Origin: a virus
DNA: 15,908 nucleotides
Strand: one strand, 5' to 3'
Virus genome (UHGV): UHGV-0361135
How positions within the stretch are numbered: the first letter of the stretch is position 1; every line of letters starts with the position of its first letter. The notes below the pieces were generated by a model. The model had not been told where the DNA came from and made no database searches. It saw only the letters and a list, made by a program, of their open reading frames with translations. Both the position numbers and the translations under genes were made by a program. Shown piece by piece: positions 2 through 14,068 of this stretch.

Positions 2-583
2 CACCTTATCAGAACCGCTTATGAAATTAACGAAGAGCCGACCGCCTATGGCGATCACGGTATTCGTATTTATGGCATCTGGTCACCCATTTCAGAGGGC
101 AAGATCTGCACTCATGCAGTGAAGTGGAAAATGGTTCGTAAGGCCGTTGACGTTCAGGAGGCGGTAGCCGACCAGGGCGCTTGCGCCCCTTGGACTCGTG
201 GCAATAACTGTCCCCTTGCTGAAAATTTGAACCAACAGGAGAAAGATAAATCAGCTGATGGGGGCACCAGAACGGACATTACCCGCATGGATGACAAGCA
301 GTTGCACGATTACCTGCACAGTATGAGCAAAAAAGAGCGCCGGGAACTGGCAGCAAGGTTACGCCTGGTTAAACCGAAACGGCGTAAAGACTACAAACAG
401 CGAATTACAGACCATCAGCGACTGCAGCTCGTCTATGAGCTGAAGTCCAGAGGATTTGATGGTAGCGAGAAAGAGGTCGATTTACTCCTTCGCGGCGGCA
501 GTATTCCGTCAGGAGCAGGCCTGCGTATCTTCTATCGGAACCAGCGTCTGCAGGAGGATGATAAATGGCGGAACCTGTATTAA
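2..583 (+). CDS. 3' end of a long ORF that enters the window already open (5' partial); probably the C-terminus of the P2-family replication initiation protein (gpA-like), judged by synteny
   Basis: Frame 2 is open from the first base of the window to TAA at 581-583. The position immediately upstream of the tum/DinI-like module and the cargo island matches the P2/186 gene order. I do not recognise the protein sequence itself. Confidence 0.5.
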
Positions 584-736: not shown

Positions 737-925
737 ATGCAGGACTATTTTTTGGAGTCTTTGAAGCTCCAGCGCATTGATTTTTTTCTTAAGCTTGTAG
801 CGGCTAGTGAGTGTAGTGATGAAGAGAAGGGGCTGGCCCTGCAGTGGGTTTCTGAACTGACAGATGAACTCATGGCAAAAATCAGAACCCACGAATACAA
901 CCGCTCAATGGATGTCATCAGTTGA
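737..925 (+). CDS. Small hypothetical protein (62 aa), first gene of the SOS-regulated operon; possible antirepressor-like partner of the DinI-like protein
   Basis: ATG at 737 is preceded by a strong RBS, AGGAGG at 727-732. The longer ORF in the track (from 635) lacks an RBS and would overlap the LexA box. No recognisable homology. Confidence 0.6.
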   Translation: MQDYFLESLKLQRIDFFLKLVAASECSDEEKGLALQWVSELTDELMAKIRTHEYNRSMDVIS

Positions 926-935
926 GGTGACTTTT

Positions 936-1169
936 ATGCGCATTGAAATAATGATCGATAAAGAGCAGAAAATTAGCCAGTCTACCCTGGACGCCCTTGA
1001 ATCCGAGCTTTACCGCAATCTGCGCCCCCTGTATCCCAAAGCGGTAATTCGTATCCGTAAAGGTAGCTCTAATGGTGTGGAACTGACCGGACTGCAACTG
1101 GACGAAGAAAGAAAACAAGTGATGAAAATTATGCAGAAGGTGTGGGAAGACGACAGCTGGCTGCATTAA
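936..1169 (+). CDS. DinI-family protein (77 aa), resembling the DinI-like C-terminal domain of phage 186 Tum antirepressor
   Basis: MRIEIMIDK...LDALESEL...SSNGVELTG...KQVMKIMQKVWEDDSWL aligns well with E. coli DinI as I recall it (MRIEVTIAK...IDALAGEL...ILQETWESADDWF). A GAGGTGA RBS precedes the ATG at 936. Confidence 0.88.
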   Translation: MRIEIMIDKEQKISQSTLDALESELYRNLRPLYPKAVIRIRKGSSNGVELTGLQLDEERKQVMKIMQKVWEDDSWLH

Positions 1170-1435: not shown

Positions 1436-1966
1436 TTAACCTTGTATAGTTATTTGAATATTTTCTTCATTAACACCAAAGTATAGGGCTAGCCCTGCTT
1501 TTGCCTCCTGAAGTGTTAACGGCTTAACTACATTTTCTTCTTCTTCTTCGTACTCATCACCCGCTTGATCGACAATCGAATTAGTCGGGGTTAATTTGGG
1601 AAGAGCTTTAAATTCCAACTTGTCAGCCTCAATGCCAATGTCTTTGAGGTTGCGATAAGAAACGGGATTCCGATTGCCATCCCATTGTCCTGGGATGTCA
1701 ATTTCAGCATAAGAATTGATGTTTATGATCCAGCGTTTAGGGTTTTCTGGAGCCCTGCTTACTCCCGAGATTCGACCGATCATAAAAGCATGATGATGTT
1801 TTGCTTCTTGTGATCCCCAGTCCTTTCTCGAATTTTGTACACAAACTAAATATTCGTGCTTAGCTGCATGGCTGGCGTCAAGTCTCCATGCTTGGCTTCC
1901 CCCTGTGTTCAAAATCTCTGTTAAACCACGAGCAGTAAGTACAGTAATACAGTTGGTAGTAGCCAT
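1436..1966 (-). CDS. Hypothetical 176-aa protein in AT-rich cargo island 1; function unknown, candidate accessory or anti-phage gene
   Basis: Intact 531-nt ORF on the minus strand with a purine-rich stretch (GACGGGG) upstream of the ATG at 1966. Composition differs from the flanking phage genes. It has an acidic patch (DEYEEEEEN) and a His-rich segment (KHHHAF). I recognise no family. Confidence 0.7.
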   Translation of the reverse strand: MATTNCITVLTARGLTEILNTGGSQAWRLDASHAAKHEYLVCVQNSRKDWGSQEAKHHHAFMIGRISGVSRAPENPKRWIININSYAEIDIPGQWDGNRNPVSYRNLKDIGIEADKLEFKALPKLTPTNSIVDQAGDEYEEEEENVVKPLTLQEAKAGLALYFGVNEENIQITIQG

Positions 1967-2283
1967 TGAATTGTGACCCCGTCTTTTTTAGAGAAATACT
2001 GTTGATGAATGTAGTTTACGTATTTTTTTATGGGGTAGTCAAGTTAGTATTATGCTCATTATTGGCTGTTTGTTGAGTGTTGTGAGTTGGTACTTTGTGT
2101 AGTATCTCTTGATTTATGAGGATTAAATCTAAGTTATGACAAAGGGAGGCAGGGGGAACGCGCAGCGCAAGGTGGACAGGAGGCCATAAGGACTCACTTG
2201 AAGTAAGAAAAGATCGATAAAGCAACAATGCATGTCTATGCCGCATGAATTCGCATGATCGTTTGAGGATCGTTTTAGTTGAG

Positions 2284-2311
2284 GCCCGCCAGGAATGGCG
2301 GGCTTTTGTTT
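2284..2311 (+). terminator. Rho-independent terminator-like hairpin on the plus strand with no annotated upstream plus-strand gene
   Basis: GCCCGCC (2284-2290), loop AGGAAT, GGCGGGC (2297-2303), followed by TTTTGTTT (2304-2311). Confidence 0.55.
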
Positions 2312-2481: not shown

Positions 2482-3180
2482 ATGGTTATGTTAGTGGATG
2501 ACTGTCCACGATGTGGATCACAAAAAATAGCGTTTGATGTTAATGGGCTGAATTGCACTAGGGTTTACAATGCATTGGGCGGGGGTAAAACATACGAGTA
2601 CGAGGTCTATTGTGTTTGCCGAGAGTGTCATAAAACGACAATGTTTCTTTGCAGACCTTTAACGAAAAATAAAACTTTAGATGGCTATAATTGGGAAAGT
2701 GGAATATTCGGCTTAAAGGAAGTTGCAGAGGTTGTTAGGCCTATATCACCGGCAGACTTAGCAGTAGAGGAGCCACCAGAGTTCTTACCTGAGCATATCA
2801 ATAGTGCATATGAGGAAGGGGCGAAATGTTTGGCTATAGGTTGTTATAATGCAGCAGCAACCATGTTTAGGCTTTGCCTTGATTATGCCACAAAAGGACT
2901 TCTTCCTGATGGGGAGCAAGGGCCTGCGCAAAAAATAAGGAGAAGCCTAGGGTTAAGAATGGAGTGGTTATTTGATAATCATCTACTGCCTGAAGCTTTA
3001 AGGGAACTAGCTGAATGCGTTAAAGATGACGGAAATGATGGAGCGCATGAAGGTATTTTGGATAAAGCTGCTGCTGAGGATCTTGAAGATTTTACCTATC
3101 TTTTTTTAGAACGGCTTTACACTGAACCTCAACGCCTTATCGAAGCCAAGACAAGGCGTGAACAAAGAAGAAACAAATAA
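2482..3180 (+). CDS. Zinc-ribbon plus DUF4145-like domain protein (232 aa); candidate single-gene defence or abortive-infection protein in cargo island 1
   Basis: GGGAGGAG RBS at 2466-2473, 8 nt before the ATG at 2482. The N-terminus has CxxC...CxxC (CPRCG...CRECH). The C-terminal region (AYEEGAKCLAIGCYNAAATMFRLCLDYATK...LRELAECVKDDGNDGAHEG) resembles the DUF4145 helical domain pattern as I recall it. Lower GC than the adjacent portal gene. Confidence 0.75.
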   Translation: MVMLVDDCPRCGSQKIAFDVNGLNCTRVYNALGGGKTYEYEVYCVCRECHKTTMFLCRPLTKNKTLDGYNWESGIFGLKEVAEVVRPISPADLAVEEPPEFLPEHINSAYEEGAKCLAIGCYNAAATMFRLCLDYATKGLLPDGEQGPAQKIRRSLGLRMEWLFDNHLLPEALRELAECVKDDGNDGAHEGILDKAAAEDLEDFTYLFLERLYTEPQRLIEAKTRREQRRNK

Positions 3181-3188
3181 GTTCGGAA

Positions 3189-4226
3189 TTATTCTTCTGA
3201 AAGAATATAGGGCGTAAATTTAATCACTTCTTCGCCCAGCCAGTCGTTCAGCTCTTGTAGCCTTTTTTGCAAGGGCGTTAATTCATTACGTACAAATACG
3301 CGACTGGCCTTCTCCACATCCCCAAATCCCCCAACATTATTAGGCATTATCCCCATCATTTGTGGCGGTACACGGTGCGCAGCCATCATGTCATCGCGGC
3401 TGACATTTTTGATATTCAGAAACTCATCCTTCGCCGCGACTTCTGACAGAGGAATGATCTGAAGGCCGTCCTTTTTGCCGTTCGGCGAGTACATAAACAG
3501 GTTACGGAAATTGCCAGGTCCTTTGGCGCTTTTCATCGCATTACGGAGGTTGTTTACATCCTCCTGGTTCTGCGCGGCGTCGGTCATGTACATGATGAAG
3601 CCTGCGTGGCTGCCGTTAATGTAATACTTGCGGCGGAACAGCGTGGCGGACTCGTTGAGTAGGGCTGACGGAATGGCAGAAAGATAACCGGGCAGGCCGT
3701 AGATCTCCTGGTTGATATCCGGTTCCATCAGGTGAAAAATGCTGCCTTTCGTGAACTGATACGGTTGCGTGGTCATGCCGTATTGCACAAACCAGTAGGT
3801 ATCCAGGTCTAATCCGCGTCGGGTGTATTTTGCCAGGGCAGGTTCAAGGGCGATAACTTCACCGAAGCGGTTCGTGCGTTTCTCCAGGTAGGCGTTACCA
3901 AAAACCAGATAGTCCTGCACAAAACGCGAAAAAGCCTGCTGGCTGAGCAGCGGGTGAGGGATGTAGGTGCTGGTCAGAATGTTGCACTTTACTGCAATCG
4001 GGGAACTATGATGCACGGCAGCGCGGAAGGTGCGCGCCAGTCCGTCAAAGCTGACGGGCGGCTCATACCAGCGGTCCATCTGTACGCATTCCACATAATC
4101 CAGCAGTTCTCGGCGGTCCAGAACAGGAACGGGATCGCCGAAGCTGAATGCTTCGGCTGTAGTTTGACTTTTAAGCTGGATCTGTTTCGTCGCCGCAGCG
4201 CGGTTCTTCTTACTCTTTCCCATCAA
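3189..4226 (-). CDS. Q: Capsid portal protein (P2 gpQ homolog)
   Basis: 345-aa ORF with a P2 Q-like N-terminus (MMGKSKKNRAAATKQ...), located immediately downstream of P on the minus strand with a 4-nt ATGA start/stop overlap. Canonical P2 Q-P arrangement. Confidence 0.92.
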   Translation of the reverse strand: MMGKSKKNRAAATKQIQLKSQTTAEAFSFGDPVPVLDRRELLDYVECVQMDRWYEPPVSFDGLARTFRAAVHHSSPIAVKCNILTSTYIPHPLLSQQAFSRFVQDYLVFGNAYLEKRTNRFGEVIALEPALAKYTRRGLDLDTYWFVQYGMTTQPYQFTKGSIFHLMEPDINQEIYGLPGYLSAIPSALLNESATLFRRKYYINGSHAGFIMYMTDAAQNQEDVNNLRNAMKSAKGPGNFRNLFMYSPNGKKDGLQIIPLSEVAAKDEFLNIKNVSRDDMMAAHRVPPQMMGIMPNNVGGFGDVEKASRVFVRNELTPLQKRLQELNDWLGEEVIKFTPYILSEE

Positions 4227-5989
4227 AAAATCTCCACAATATTGCTGGTATTGGCGGATTCGCCCTGCAGCGGTTCGTTAAACAGTGCGTGCATTGTTGC
4301 CCAGGCCAGATCGGCATGGCTGGCTTCTTCGCTGCGGCTGGCTTCATAGGTTGGGCGGTTGCCGCTGGCGGTGGTGGCGCGACGGATTGCCATAAATGAC
4401 TGCGCTATGTCGGTGTGTCCGGCGTCAAACTCCAGACGACGGTGACTGATAATGTCGTAGGCCTTGAGTACCAGGGCGTTTTTAACGTTGGGGTTGTAGA
4501 CAAACTCCCGGACGGCTGGAAAAAACGCTTTCACGTTCTCGTAAACCCCGTGGCCGACACCTGTCGAGTCGATGCCGATGTAGGTCACGTTGTACTGTTC
4601 GGTCAGTTTTTTGATGGCGTCAGCCTGGGCGCGAAAGTCCATTCCGCGCCACTGGTGACGCTCAAGAATGCGGAACTTGCCGCCCGGCACGGCTGGCGGT
4701 GCCACCACCACGCATCCGGCGCTGTCGCCATTCTGCGTACCTTTCGCCGGGTCATAACCGATCCATACTTCGCACCAGCCAAACGGGCGCAGGGCCAGTG
4801 CATGAAAGTCAGTCCAGACTTCCCAGCTGTCTACCATGCACGCCTGCAGCTCGCTGAGCGGGAACACGGACGCGAGATCGTCCACGAACTCACACATCAG
4901 CAGGTTCTGGTATTCGTCCGGGCTGTACTCCATGCGCAACTGGTCGAGATCGAACAGGTTACATCCGCCGCGCACAGCATCTTCCACGGTGACTATCTGG
5001 CGGTATTGCCCGTCTGCGCACAGCAGGCCGGGGGCCAGATTGCTGTGGGACAGGTCGATGTCCACCTTATCGGCTTTGTTGCGCCCACGGTTGAACAGCG
5101 CACCGGACCAGAACGGATAAGCACTGTGTGTCAGGCTGGATGGCGTGGAAAAATAGGTTTGTCGCCATTTTTTGTGAATAGCCATACCGGAAGCCACTTT
5201 GCGCAGCTCCTGGAATTTCGGTATCCAGAAATATTCATCCAGATACAGGTTGCCGTGGTAACTCTGGGCCGTGCGGGCATTGGTGCCGAGGAAGTAAAGC
5301 GTGGCCCCGTTGGGAAGCACCATCGGATCGCCTTTCAGCTCCACCTCCACTTCTTTGGCGAAGTCGATGATGTACTGTTTAAAGACGTGGGCCTGTGCCT
5401 TACTGGCAGAAAGGAAAATCTGGTTACGTCCGGTAAGCAGGGCGTCAATCAGGGCTTCACGGGCAAAATAGAAGGTCGCGCCGATCTGGCGTGACTTCAG
5501 CAGGTTGCGGATGCGGTTGGTTTTTCCGGCTTCCCACCAGTGGCGCTGGTAGTTGAACATGGAGGAATGGAAAATTTCTTCCAGCTTCTCAATCTGTTCA
5601 TCGGTGAAAACATTCTTTTCAGGCTGACGGCGTGGGCCTTTGTTGCGGTTGGCGACGTTAGGGTTTAAGTCAGCTTCGTTGCCGCCATTGTTAAACTTGC
5701 CGATCCGCGCGTGGCGCTCCGACTGGCGCGCCAGCAGGTCAATCTCTTTGAAATCTTTCCCTTCTTTGTGCTCCTTCATGATGAGCTGGCAGTAGCGTGC
5801 GGCGGTAGTGAGCTGCATCTGATCCAGCGGCCCATAGTCACCCCACTTGTCGCGTTTTTTCCAGCTGTGAACGGTTGCAACTTTCTCGCCCAGCATTTCA
5901 GCAATGCGGGCTACGCGGTATCCCTGAAAGTACAGCAGCATGGCCTGCCGACGGGGATCGAGATCTGCGGGTGTCAGTGTGGTGTTCAT
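4223..5989 (-). CDS. P: Terminase large (ATPase) subunit (P2 gpP homolog)
   Basis: 588-aa ORF, matching the size and position of P2 gpP. It is divergent from O across a 142-bp late-promoter region. Confidence 0.92.
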   Translation of the reverse strand: MNTTLTPADLDPRRQAMLLYFQGYRVARIAEMLGEKVATVHSWKKRDKWGDYGPLDQMQLTTAARYCQLIMKEHKEGKDFKEIDLLARQSERHARIGKFNNGGNEADLNPNVANRNKGPRRQPEKNVFTDEQIEKLEEIFHSSMFNYQRHWWEAGKTNRIRNLLKSRQIGATFYFAREALIDALLTGRNQIFLSASKAQAHVFKQYIIDFAKEVEVELKGDPMVLPNGATLYFLGTNARTAQSYHGNLYLDEYFWIPKFQELRKVASGMAIHKKWRQTYFSTPSSLTHSAYPFWSGALFNRGRNKADKVDIDLSHSNLAPGLLCADGQYRQIVTVEDAVRGGCNLFDLDQLRMEYSPDEYQNLLMCEFVDDLASVFPLSELQACMVDSWEVWTDFHALALRPFGWCEVWIGYDPAKGTQNGDSAGCVVVAPPAVPGGKFRILERHQWRGMDFRAQADAIKKLTEQYNVTYIGIDSTGVGHGVYENVKAFFPAVREFVYNPNVKNALVLKAYDIISHRRLEFDAGHTDIAQSFMAIRRATTASGNRPTYEASRSEEASHADLAWATMHALFNEPLQGESANTSNIVEIF

Positions 5990-11964: not shown

Positions 11965-12816
11965 TTATTTCATTTCGTGTGGCATATTTATGGCTTTAAT
12001 TTTTTCGTGGTAATGATTAAACTCAATATGAGTATTGGTAAAATTGGATTCAAATGTATTCATTAAATTGGAATATAATGATTCATATGATAAGGATACT
12101 TTTTTTCCATTTTTTTCTGCAGTTGTGCTAATGTACCTATGTACTGCAGAAAAAAGAAAATGACCTCTAAGCCACTTTCTGTATTCTATCGATTTTGATT
12201 TGAAAGATGAATCGATGTTATCTGGTTCCACACCTAATTTTTCAATGATGGTGTTTTTGTAACTCGTGATTTTTTGCTCGCAAATTTCATTTGATTTTCT
12301 AGATTTCATGAAACGATCTGCACTGTCACCAATAACTGAAATGCCTTTTCTATAAATATGATTGTATATATCAAGTTTTATTAGGGGTTCCATTTTGGTA
12401 TAAAAGTCTTCTGTCCAAGAATCGACGTTGACATCGTTCATTATCTTTTGAGGTAATTTTCCGAGAGTTTTTATTGCCTTATATATGCCTGTTTTGTCAA
12501 TAAACGTGTTTTCGATGGAGTGCCCATAAGTTTTTACAATGCGACTATCAGCGTTTTCCTCATTTTCAAATGTAGTGAAGTCTGCATCACATGCAATTAT
12601 AATTTGAAGATCTTCATCAGTAACTCTATCAATATATTTTTTTAATTCTTCACAGCCGCCAACATCTTTGATTTCAACCTTTAATGAACTAGCTTTATTA
12701 AAGATGATTTCCCAAAAGCAAATATCATCTGGGCCTTCAACATAAACCATGGCTTCAGCTTGGTAAAATAAATTCATTACATTTTCTGCTTCGGCAGAAT
12801 AATGGAAATCATCCAT
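11965..12816 (-). CDS. OLD-family TOPRIM-like nuclease candidate (DUF4435-like; AriB-like or AbiLii-like), second gene of the island-2 defence operon
   Basis: Start chosen at ATG 12816 (MDDFHYS...), which has a GGAGA RBS 9 nt upstream and an 8-nt overlap with the upstream ATPase gene. The track start at 12900 has no RBS. The N-terminal VYVEGPDD (Glu at about residue 27) and the later IIACDADF (DxD) fit a TOPRIM catalytic E...DxD arrangement. Strongly AT-rich. Confidence 0.75.
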   Translation of the reverse strand: MDDFHYSAEAENVMNLFYQAEAMVYVEGPDDICFWEIIFNKASSLKVEIKDVGGCEELKKYIDRVTDEDLQIIIACDADFTTFENEENADSRIVKTYGHSIENTFIDKTGIYKAIKTLGKLPQKIMNDVNVDSWTEDFYTKMEPLIKLDIYNHIYRKGISVIGDSADRFMKSRKSNEICEQKITSYKNTIIEKLGVEPDNIDSSFKSKSIEYRKWLRGHFLFSAVHRYISTTAEKNGKKVSLSYESLYSNLMNTFESNFTNTHIEFNHYHEKIKAINMPHEMK

Positions 12817-14068
12817 GAACCAATTTCTCCATATCAAAGATTGCATTTCGATATTTAGAAGCCACTTCTGGTGAATGCGTAGCGGCGATAATTTGCGCAT
12901 TAGGATTAAGTTGTTTGATTGCAGGTATTATTTTTCGTTGCCATGCAATATGTAGCGATAATTCTGGTTCATCAGTAAGATAGATGAAAGGTTTGTTTTG
13001 CTGTAGCAAAGTTTCAATAAAAAGAATTAATAGCTGTTTTTCACCAGACGATAAATTACTATGGCTAATCGGCCCATGCTCGTTTTCTATTACTAGCTCA
13101 CCGGAGATAAAATTAAATTTTTTATCGGTTATGAACTCATGTAATGTTTCTAAAAATAGATTTATAGGAAGAAATATGTTTTTTATTTTCTCCTCGGATT
13201 TTAAAGACATCTTTATAATTCTTTGCGTCTTTCGTAATGCCTCAAATGATCTGTAATCTACATTTAAAATATTTCTGTTATTTTTTTCTGCAAGTCGTAA
13301 TTCTTCAAATGTTTTGGCAATAGATTCAACGTGAAAGTTAATCTTCTTTCTGACATCACTATCAAAAGCTCCAAGCTGAGAATATGCAGCTATTAAATTT
13401 CTACGTTCTTTTTCTTTATCAAAAGAAAAGTTAAATGTGTCATCGATACCATCTTCTTTACTATAAAGAATAGAAGCAAGAACCTCTTTCTGTAATATTG
13501 CAGAAACATCACGAGCTCTTTGTGATAAATAAAGTTGATATTTTGTTAGATTCTGCAATAATTGTTCTAATCGGTAATCAACAGGGTTGATTAATTTTGA
13601 GCCATATTTGTCTCTGATTTCAAAATCTTCACCGCTTCTAAGTCGGTAAACTGATAGAGAAGATAAAGCAACTAATTTATCTAACTCTAACTTAAGTTTT
13701 TCAACGTCTTCCTGATATTTTCTCCTCATATATATAGGTAGTCTACGATCTTCAAAGGATCTGATAATATATTTCTTTCTAGAAATTGTATATTCAAACG
13801 TAGGCAAAGCTTTAGTTATGTCAAATTTACTCACAACTTTTATTGTTTTAGTTTTGCTTCCTTCTTTTATTTTTATTGTTACATTATCAAAACTATTCTC
13901 ATTTAGTGATTCGAGTTCTAATGCCAGAACTGAGTGAAGAATATTCATAAAGGTTGTTTTACCGGTCCCATTTCGACCAATAATAATATTTACATCTTCA
14001 TTAAATGAACATGATGCATTTAGTCTTCCCCAAAAACCTTCAATCTTGACACTAGATAATCTAAACAT
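12809..14068 (-). CDS. ABC/AAA_21-type ATPase (419 aa; AriA-like or AbiLi-like, OLD-family ATPase-like), first gene of the island-2 defence operon
   Basis: AAGGA RBS 5 nt before the ATG at 14068. Walker A GRNGTGKTT near the N-terminus, ABC signature-like LSSGEKQLL, Walker B IYLTDEPELSLH and H-loop AATHSP near the C-terminus. Strongly AT-rich relative to the flanking phage genes. Confidence 0.85.
   Translation of the reverse strand: MFRLSSVKIEGFWGRLNASCSFNEDVNIIIGRNGTGKTTFMNILHSVLALELESLNENSFDNVTIKIKEGSKTKTIKVVSKFDITKALPTFEYTISRKKYIIRSFEDRRLPIYMRRKYQEDVEKLKLELDKLVALSSLSVYRLRSGEDFEIRDKYGSKLINPVDYRLEQLLQNLTKYQLYLSQRARDVSAILQKEVLASILYSKEDGIDDTFNFSFDKEKERRNLIAAYSQLGAFDSDVRKKINFHVESIAKTFEELRLAEKNNRNILNVDYRSFEALRKTQRIIKMSLKSEEKIKNIFLPINLFLETLHEFITDKKFNFISGELVIENEHGPISHSNLSSGEKQLLILFIETLLQQNKPFIYLTDEPELSLHIAWQRKIIPAIKQLNPNAQIIAATHSPEVASKYRNAIFDMEKLVHG

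Follow-up and report, generated by a model that had tools for sequence, protein, structure and literature searches.

PUA-like readers of the EVE, YTH, and ASCH types are known either as solo proteins or as sensors in VcaM4I EVE-HNH, PD-T4-3, the McrB N-domain, and DrmA, and they are emerging as common sensors of modification-dependent immunity, i.e., type IV restriction, DISARM, Metis, and PUA-Cal-HAD. In P2-like phages, the region between gpA and gpQ is an experimentally supported antiphage hotspot, where P2 itself carries old and tin, and about one-third of the tested cargoes from this hotspot confer defense (Rousset et al., PMC9122126). Here we analyzed the gene of a 176-amino-acid (aa) protein at positions 1436 to 1966 (minus strand) of UHGV virus genome UHGV-0361135, a stretch of 15,908 nucleotides (nt), hereafter called the window, which is part of a P2-like prophage. 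An earlier note on this sequence had described the product as an orphan encoded in the position of P2 tin/old. We found that the product is a member of a large family of solo proteins of ~170 aa, nearly all of which are encoded on mobile elements, that its model points to a PUA-like fold, and that its gene is located in a cargo slot next to the cohesive-end (cos) site of the prophage.

The designation "orphan" had to be abandoned, since the protein belongs to a large and architecturally uniform family. A word-indexed search yielded 84 homologues, down to 37% identity, and an exhaustive profile search recovered 1,007 cluster representatives (clusters at 50% identity) at an E value of ≤1e-3, 285 of them at ≤1e-30. 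Nearly all of these 1,007 representatives are 160 to 190 aa long and match from end to end. Besides likely miscalled starts, the only fusions among them were a tandem duplication and a probable AbrB/MazE-like extension; the representatives concerned are P0224 and P0145, one having a C-terminal extension that resembles, by eye, an AbrB/MazE-type swapped hairpin and the other a tandem duplication of the N-terminal core. The earlier statement that no family is recognizable still applies to Pfam, NCBIfam, and PADLOC, scans of which gave no real match to the 176-aa protein (nor did Pfam scans of 44 family members), but it does not extend to phrog_37247 (function not assigned), which the protein matches at an E value of 6e-94, or to the predicted fold described below.

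All kinds of mobile elements were seen to carry members of the family. In PLSDB, a translated search detected them on 193 plasmids, 163 of which are mobilizable and most of which are 4 to 6 kb in size. These include ColE1-type plasmids of Salmonella, Enterobacter, Klebsiella, Citrobacter, and Escherichia coli, one RepM/MOBV plasmid, and the pRAY family of Acinetobacter; in pABLAC2, a plasmid of the pRAY family, mobA is followed after 108 bp by the gene, which has the same orientation, and the pRAY-family backbone holding the gene has no recognizable rep gene. A homologue was located within the TraC-TraU-TraG cluster of a Pseudomonas integrative conjugative element (ICE), and further copies lie beside a serine recombinase gene, in an integrase-primase island, and in a small Pectobacterium islet together with ParDE. 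In alphaproteobacterial prophages with a lambda-type terminase, the homologue directly adjoins the small and large terminase genes, and at one such locus a ParB-methyltransferase gene is situated on its other side. Virulent phiCbK-like jumbo phages of Brevundimonas carry a 28%-identical copy amid small hypothetical genes. Two further copies, ~6 kb apart (L054, 4067 to 4582; L055, 10001 to 10516), were observed on one contig attributed to the thaumarchaeon Candidatus Nitrosotalea sp. TS, representing either an archaeal occurrence or contamination.

The gene was called intact in the earlier note, and this was confirmed: its coding sequence runs from the ATG at 1966 to 1964 to the stop codon at 1436 to 1438, and its product is identical to RefSeq WP_000246368.1, annotated as "hypothetical protein." The start codon is backed by homologues with the N terminus MA(T/N)TNC. 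Pairwise comparisons with seven homologues that are 75 to 98% identical and have an unsaturated synonymous substitution rate (dS) gave ratios of nonsynonymous to synonymous substitutions (dN/dS) of 0.06 to 0.17, indicating that the gene is under purifying selection. Considering this low ratio, the 1,007 related clusters of like length and architecture, and a promoter core kept amid diverged flanks, we regard 1436 to 1966 as almost certainly a real gene. The promoter in question is a sigma-70-like element, TTGACT-N18-TAAACT (2013 to 2042, minus strand); its cores TTGAC and TAnACT are invariant in six diverged P2-like loci, whereas the flanks have drifted. A Shine-Dalgarno-like GGGG motif (1977 to 1980, minus strand) lies 10 nt upstream of the ATG, and the same six loci all retain GGRG at about this distance from the start codon. 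The ribosome binding site noticed earlier is represented by this modest purine motif only. Judged from these signals, the gene is a separate moron-like unit with its own conserved promoter-like element, opposite in direction to the early operon.

The distinct base composition pointed out in the earlier note was reproduced, as the G+C content of the gene is 0.42 against 0.52 to 0.57 in the portal, terminase, and late genes. The same value of 0.42 was, however, obtained for the adjoining spacers and for a DUF4145 cargo gene, which means that the whole cos-proximal cargo region is low in G+C and not the 176-aa gene alone. An upstream 72-aa open reading frame (ORF) at 2028 to 2246 was considered as a partner and rejected; it has no family matches, and it is noncoding because the indels of its relatives are not multiples of three and break the frame. 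An Rfam scan of the window detected no RNA family.

An AlphaFold2 model of the protein, built from a 44-sequence alignment of the family, has a mean predicted local distance difference test (pLDDT) score of 83.5 and superposes on solved PUA-like structures as a small beta-barrel-like fold with flanking helices. Residues 1 to 125 (1592 to 1966, minus strand) form a basic (pI 9.0), beta-rich core that contains invariant residues of the family and is predicted, from the model, to be PUA-like (EVE/YTH/ASCH). They are followed by a variable linker of residues 126 to 148 (1523 to 1591, minus strand), predicted to be disordered with a pLDDT of <50 for about residues 128 to 144, and by a conserved C-terminal helix and strand formed by residues 149 to 176 (1439 to 1522, minus strand) with a pLDDT of ~90. 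The structures matched include VcaM4I EVE-HNH (score, 7.3), DISARM DrmA (6.9), PD-T4-3 specific for 5-hydroxymethylcytosine (5hmC) (6.8), ASCH proteins (6.0 to 6.7), THYN1 (6.3), and McrB N-domains (5.3 to 5.5), and the ZmASCH ribonuclease and the YqfB N4-acetylcytidine (ac4C) amidohydrolase were also among the matches. With Foldseek, the ASCH domain of TRIP4 was matched at an E value of 9e-3 and a probability of 0.97, with a template modeling (TM) score of ~0.41 to 0.47, which are weak statistics. The Foldseek alignments to ASCH domains span 140 to 153 columns, and the C-terminal motif PLTxxEAKAGLALxFGVxxxxIxITIxG (with A155, K156, G158, and I172) is kept even in plasmid paralogues of 31% identity; our reading, accordingly, is that the C-terminal helix belongs to the PUA-like domain and that the linker is inserted into it. 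Residues 149 to 176 are thus probably integral to the fold rather than a separate module, and the protein is likely, on the basis of the model, to be a single PUA-like domain interrupted by a disordered and often acidic loop.

The model also bears on the acidic patch DEYEEEEEN to which the earlier note had drawn attention. The patch is indeed present (residues 137 to 145; nt 1532 to 1558), but it falls within the linker, which is 13 to 44 residues long across 44 family members, its net charge being −3 or below in 23 of them. Being part of a disordered segment that varies in both length and charge, the patch carries no weight. Invariant or nearly invariant positions are G22-G23-S24, W27, Y39, Q44-N45, H57-H58, F61, R78, Y86, W95, R99-N100-P101, Y104, A155-K156, and G158. 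Among these, W27, H57, F61, R78, Y86, W95, R99, Y104, and K156 may line a base-binding pocket, and the mix of conserved residues resembles the aromatic and Arg/Lys pocket of PUA-Cal; in characterized PUA-like domains, the pockets for base and phosphate are lined by such aromatic and basic residues (10.64898/2026.01.15.699771). By analogy with these domains, it is fairly probable that the 176-aa protein binds nucleic acids or nucleotides. No nuclease, second domain, or effector domain was found in it by Pfam or PADLOC, and the model shows no second domain. Searches of PDB sequences with the protein and with the family profile gave nothing usable, and a viral structure library gave weak matches only; a weak match to T4 Gp8 (E value, 0.03 to 0.11) was dismissed as noise. 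Homology to a housekeeping or structural protein was not found in any of these searches.

The locus itself agrees with the comparison to tin and old made in the earlier note. In the window, the C-terminal part of the replication endonuclease gpA (119 to 583, plus strand; PHROG match, "nicking at origin of replication") is followed by a DinI-like gene (864 to 1169, plus strand), so the 176-aa gene does run, as had been stated, on the strand opposite to the replication module. Beyond it lies a putative cos cohesive-end sequence, GGCGTGGCGGGGATACGAG (2353 to 2371, no strand assigned), which divides the slot of the 176-aa gene from the cargo slot between cos and the portal gene. The cos-type sequence GGCGTGGCGGGG begins at 2353, and we take the sequence at 2353 to 2371 to resemble P2 cos. 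The record of Escherichia phage Cartapus, which is identical to the window from ~2321 through the portal gene, starts ~30 nt before GGCGTGGCGGGG, i.e., at about 2321 of the window, and has a cos site annotated there. This places the 176-aa gene at the right end of the phage genome, with the early operon on one side of it and cos on the other. The portal gene (3189 to 4226, minus strand) and the large terminase gene (4223 to 5989, minus strand) come next, and past the terminase there are scaffold, capsid, lysis, and tail genes on the plus strand.

This arrangement recurs at 17 P2-like loci, namely, the window, two complete E. coli genomes, and 14 IMG/VR contigs, in which the C-terminal part of gpA is 67 to 97% identical. 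The shared order is gpA, usually DinI, the 176-aa gene, 387 to 418 nt of spacer, cos, variable cargo, and portal, and the motif GGCGnGGCGGGG occurs at 387 to 418 nt from the ATG in all 17, in line with conservation of the gene among related prophages. Because the cargoes between cos and portal differ from locus to locus, with at least 10 different ones among the P2-like loci carrying the 176-aa gene, this gene is an independent unit and not part of the cos-portal systems. It is also rare, being present in 8 of 5,426 complete E. coli genomes, ~1,250 of which have this portal type. In other P2-like E. coli prophages, the slot between DinI and cos is filled by a gene for a 139-aa GNAT acetyltransferase in the same orientation (L097, 3878 to 4297, minus strand) or is empty (L098). 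Thus, the 176-aa gene is one allele of a variable cargo slot of P2-like prophages between the early operon and cos. Copies that are 74 to 79% identical were observed elsewhere in two viral contigs (L077, 1 to 534; L078, 424 to 957), not beside cos but directly adjoining apparent P2-type tail genes (ogr/D/U/tape-measure-sized ORFs). A link with the phage-borne Dam methylase was considered and rejected; the methylase is present in 1,239 E. coli genomes against 1,248 with the portal, and being about as common as the portal, it is not specific to the eight genomes with the 176-aa gene.

Several further features of the prophage were recorded. A conserved GC-rich hairpin followed by a T-run (2281 to 2306, plus strand), resembling a terminator on the plus strand, is included in the conserved cos-proximal block, and transcripts reading through from the early operon would cross the 176-aa gene in antisense before meeting it. 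The slot between cos and portal is occupied in the window by a gene for a 232-aa DUF4145 protein with a Cys-rich N-terminal stretch (2482 to 3180, plus strand; PADLOC PD-T7-4 at an E value of 1e-6; phrog_1305), the DNA of which is 100% identical to that of Escherichia phage Cartapus. In sister prophages, the cargoes of this slot include a retron St85 effector with its reverse transcriptase and a HIRAN-domain protein with a partner (L001, 7247 to 9295; L002, 7324 to 8975; L064 to L080). A PARIS-type pair, consisting of an AriA-like ABC ATPase (12809 to 14068, minus strand; PADLOC AriA at 6e-40) and an AriB-like DUF4435/TOPRIM protein (11965 to 12900, minus strand; PADLOC AriB at 3e-24), is contained in a 30%-G+C island (11965 to 14068, minus strand) between tail-completion and baseplate genes. 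Since this island is inserted among tail and baseplate genes, we consider it a second cargo slot of the prophage.

In the loci retrieved for comparison, genes were called by a simple longest-ORF rule. At distant loci, no conserved partner of the family was found: when the neighbors at 56 such loci were clustered, no family occurred at more than five of them, and the most frequent ones were integrases and relaxases. Correspondingly, the commonest Pfam families among 124 neighbors from 46 nonredundant loci were phage integrase (six), MobA/MobL (three), and resolvase (three). Neighbors of defense type (Hma, DISARM-like, and PDC-S20) were each present at single distant loci. In Noviherbaspirillum agri, a gene for a 318-aa HNH protein (L003, 8579 to 9532, plus strand) follows the homologue on the same strand after a gap of 62 bp, and the HNH region matches type IV methyl-directed restriction enzymes of PADLOC at an E value of 7e-17; this is the only locus resembling a split reader-nuclease pair. 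On the 6.2-kb ColE1-type Salmonella plasmid p11-5006.2 (L090, 1578 to 3253), the homologue is followed after 4 nt by genes for a tetratricopeptide-repeat protein and a 153-aa hypothetical protein, beside lpxO, an arrangement that may be a lineage-specific operon. PADLOC "DpdH" calls among the neighbors, considered as a link to 7-deazaguanine, were discarded, as the genes are MobA/MobL relaxases of small plasmids. The DpdH model matches such MobA/MobL-type relaxases down to an E value of 5e-86 (L017, 1187 to 2479; L029, 973 to 1854; L026, 1440 to 2606) and could thereby give false Dpd calls on plasmids.

As to function, the 176-aa protein is rather likely to be a conflict-related cargo of mobile elements, and the exclusion of superinfecting phages with modified DNA, i.e., a defense role, is the single most likely one, although we hold it only tentatively. 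We rank this role first because of the hotspot position, the organization as a moron-like unit that has a promoter of its own and is read against the early operon, and the company of defense genes within the same prophages, namely, the PD-T7-4-like DUF4145 gene, retron St85, and PARIS. A pocket built from the conserved aromatic and basic residues would bind a nucleobase, probably one with a modification, whether flipped out of DNA or RNA or present as a free nucleotide. Since an effector domain is lacking and no partner is conserved, the protein would act by occupancy (masking or blocking) or by a small hydrolytic reaction on the recognized base which leaves the killing to resident nucleases of the cell. 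A precedent for the latter is the ASCH-type hydrolase BapA, which strips glucose from glucosyl-5hmC and thereby enables the Brig3 glycosylase (10.64898/2026.02.25.707755). Expressed as a moron from the prophage, such a protein might exclude superinfecting phages with modified-base DNA, performing the kind of job that tin and old perform with the kind of reader that type IV restriction uses.

A number of observations weigh against this exclusion role. To our knowledge, the known modification-dependent defenses all carry a nuclease or other effector, whereas the 176-aa protein has none and no partner is conserved with it in the 46 nonredundant loci. The distribution of the family suits a function that serves the element at least as well, given that the plasmids are for the most part mobilizable (163 of 193) and that the gene is situated behind mobA, in the mating-pair operon of an ICE, and in virulent jumbo phages. 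Besides, the PUA-like fold is deduced from a predicted model, the scores of which are moderate (Foldseek E value of ~1e-2; TM score of 0.41 to 0.47), and no EVE, ASCH, YTH, or related Pfam profile was detected at an E value of ≤10 in any of the 44 members; by sequence, membership of the protein in the EVE, YTH, or ASCH families cannot be demonstrated. The family alignment contains no invariant acidic residue, although BapA needs an Asp. Finally, PADLOC has no model for the protein, and its accession, WP_000246368, does not occur in the supplementary data on the P2 hotspot (PMC9122126).

The same lack of an effector and of a partner conserved in the nonredundant loci would suit a small, solo reader working in counterdefense or establishment, i.e., serving the mobile element by competing with PUA-like sensors of the host for their ligand. 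Such a reader might cover the element's own modified (e.g., methylated) bases against the modification-dependent nucleases of a new host, or it might soak up a modified-nucleotide alarm, e.g., the N6-methyl-dAMP (m6dAMP) that triggers Metis or PUA-Cal-HAD. The range of elements that carry the family (193 plasmids, including 163 mobilizable ones; the ICE; jumbo phages; and prophages next to terS/terL), the enrichment of integrases, relaxases, and resolvases among its neighbors, and the structural kinship with the sensor domains of type IV enzymes, DISARM DrmA, and m6dAMP sensors all fit this explanation, as does the placement of the gene, which is ~390 nt away from cos and is read from the end inward under its own promoter. 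Yet our literature search yielded no PUA-like precedent for antidefense or antirestriction, and there was no match to the known Ard, Klc, or Ocr families. An m6dAMP sponge would be of little benefit, since P2 and plasmids do not degrade host DNA, and the Dam methylase, occurring in almost all P2-like prophages of this type (1,239 genomes), is not specific to the gene. Moreover, a separate, moron-like transcription unit running against the early operon is what one would rather expect of genes expressed in the lysogen, and the exclusion genes of P2 itself hold the same position. Counterdefense ranks next to exclusion but is a rather unlikely alternative. The broader proposal of a pan-element, "reader-only" PUA-like decoy for host PUA-like sensors, used by plasmids, ICEs, and phages alike to hide the modified bases of incoming DNA from type IV restriction and DISARM-type systems or to sponge modified-nucleotide alarms, appears improbable.

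Where the conserved residues are concerned, the invariant polar set S24, Q44, N45, H57, H58, R78, R99, N100, Y104, and K156 looks more like an active site than like a simple cage, and the ASCH-fold matches include enzymes (ZmASCH ribonuclease and YqfB ac4C amidohydrolase). The protein might hence be a small enzyme or a nucleic-acid-binding accessory protein outside immunity, for example, a hydrolase or RNase of the ASCH type that has modified RNA or nucleotides as its substrate, or a DNA/RNA binder for maintenance, transfer, or gene regulation of the element. Retention of the gene in the pRAY-family backbone, which lacks a recognizable rep gene, its co-orientation with transfer genes, and the AbrB/MazE-like extension seen by eye in one representative could be understood in this way. 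On the other hand, no acidic residue is invariant, and no catalytic motif matches any family. P2 and ColE1-type plasmids are able to replicate in the absence of such a factor, and the gene is missing from most P2-like prophages and is thus dispensable cargo; in addition, it jumps between unrelated backbones, as is typical of conflict or addiction cargo. We consider an enzymatic or accessory function outside immunity about as probable as counterdefense and likewise rather unlikely. An addiction module, in which the protein would be a growth inhibitor curbed by a neighboring antitoxin or small RNA, recalls the toxin-antitoxin modules often held by small plasmids and prophage cargo slots, and ParDE, RelE, and YoeB modules do occur near several loci. 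These pairs are, however, already complete by themselves, no partner gene is conserved alongside the family, the upstream 72-aa ORF (2028 to 2246) is noncoding, and the window contains no Rfam RNA, making a toxin very improbable. Exclusion of superinfecting phages remains our preferred reading. If it is true, the 176-aa protein would be a minimal exclusion factor working without a nuclease of its own; if counterdefense is true, the family would represent a new route of plasmids and phages around modification-dependent immunity, and this would matter for how resistance plasmids spread among Acinetobacter and Enterobacteriaceae. The effector-less PUA-like family rides on small resistance plasmids (pRAY), ColE1-type plasmids, ICEs, and phages.

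In comparison with known systems, the 176-aa protein differs from the EVE, YTH, and ASCH readers in having no sequence-profile similarity to them, no fused or adjacent nuclease or ATPase, and a disordered acidic insertion before the last helix. It lacks the nuclease (HNH, PD-(D/E)xK, or GIY-YIG) of type IV restriction enzymes, an HNH neighbor being present in N. agri (L003) only. The family shares with ArdA, KlcA/ArdB, and Ocr the property of being small, solo, and carried by plasmids, ICEs, and phages, and some of those proteins are acidic; nevertheless, it has no Pfam match to ArdA, KlcA/ArdB, ArdC, or Ocr, and its core is basic (pI 9.0). Because acidity is confined to the variable disordered loop, we infer that the 176-aa protein is not a DNA mimic. 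The type of locus and the fold are already known, whereas the solo, effector-less, pan-element family appears to be uncharacterized in the libraries and literature searched, in which WP_000246368 was absent. As is predicted for the 176-aa protein, Metis (MisA) and PUA-Cal-HAD contain a PUA-like domain; in these sensors, the aromatic-basic pocket of the domain binds the modified mononucleotide m6dAMP (10.1101/2025.11.05.686725; 10.64898/2026.01.15.699771), but the domain is fused to a metallophosphatase and accompanied by a second gene, neither of which the 176-aa protein has. BapA, compared here by its description, is also an ASCH/PUA-like protein without its own nuclease and acts on a modified phage base (10.64898/2026.02.25.707755); in contrast to the single-domain, solo 176-aa family, it consists of two beta-barrels, belongs to the Brig3 operon, and has an essential Asp. 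As for P2 tin and old, the 176-aa protein shows no match to Old, TOPRIM, ATPase, or Tin by Pfam, PADLOC, or PHROG and differs from them in size and predicted fold, while its gene, like theirs, is an optional, low-G+C, moron-like unit that occupies the same slot between gpA and cos in the same orientation relative to the early operon (PMC9122126).

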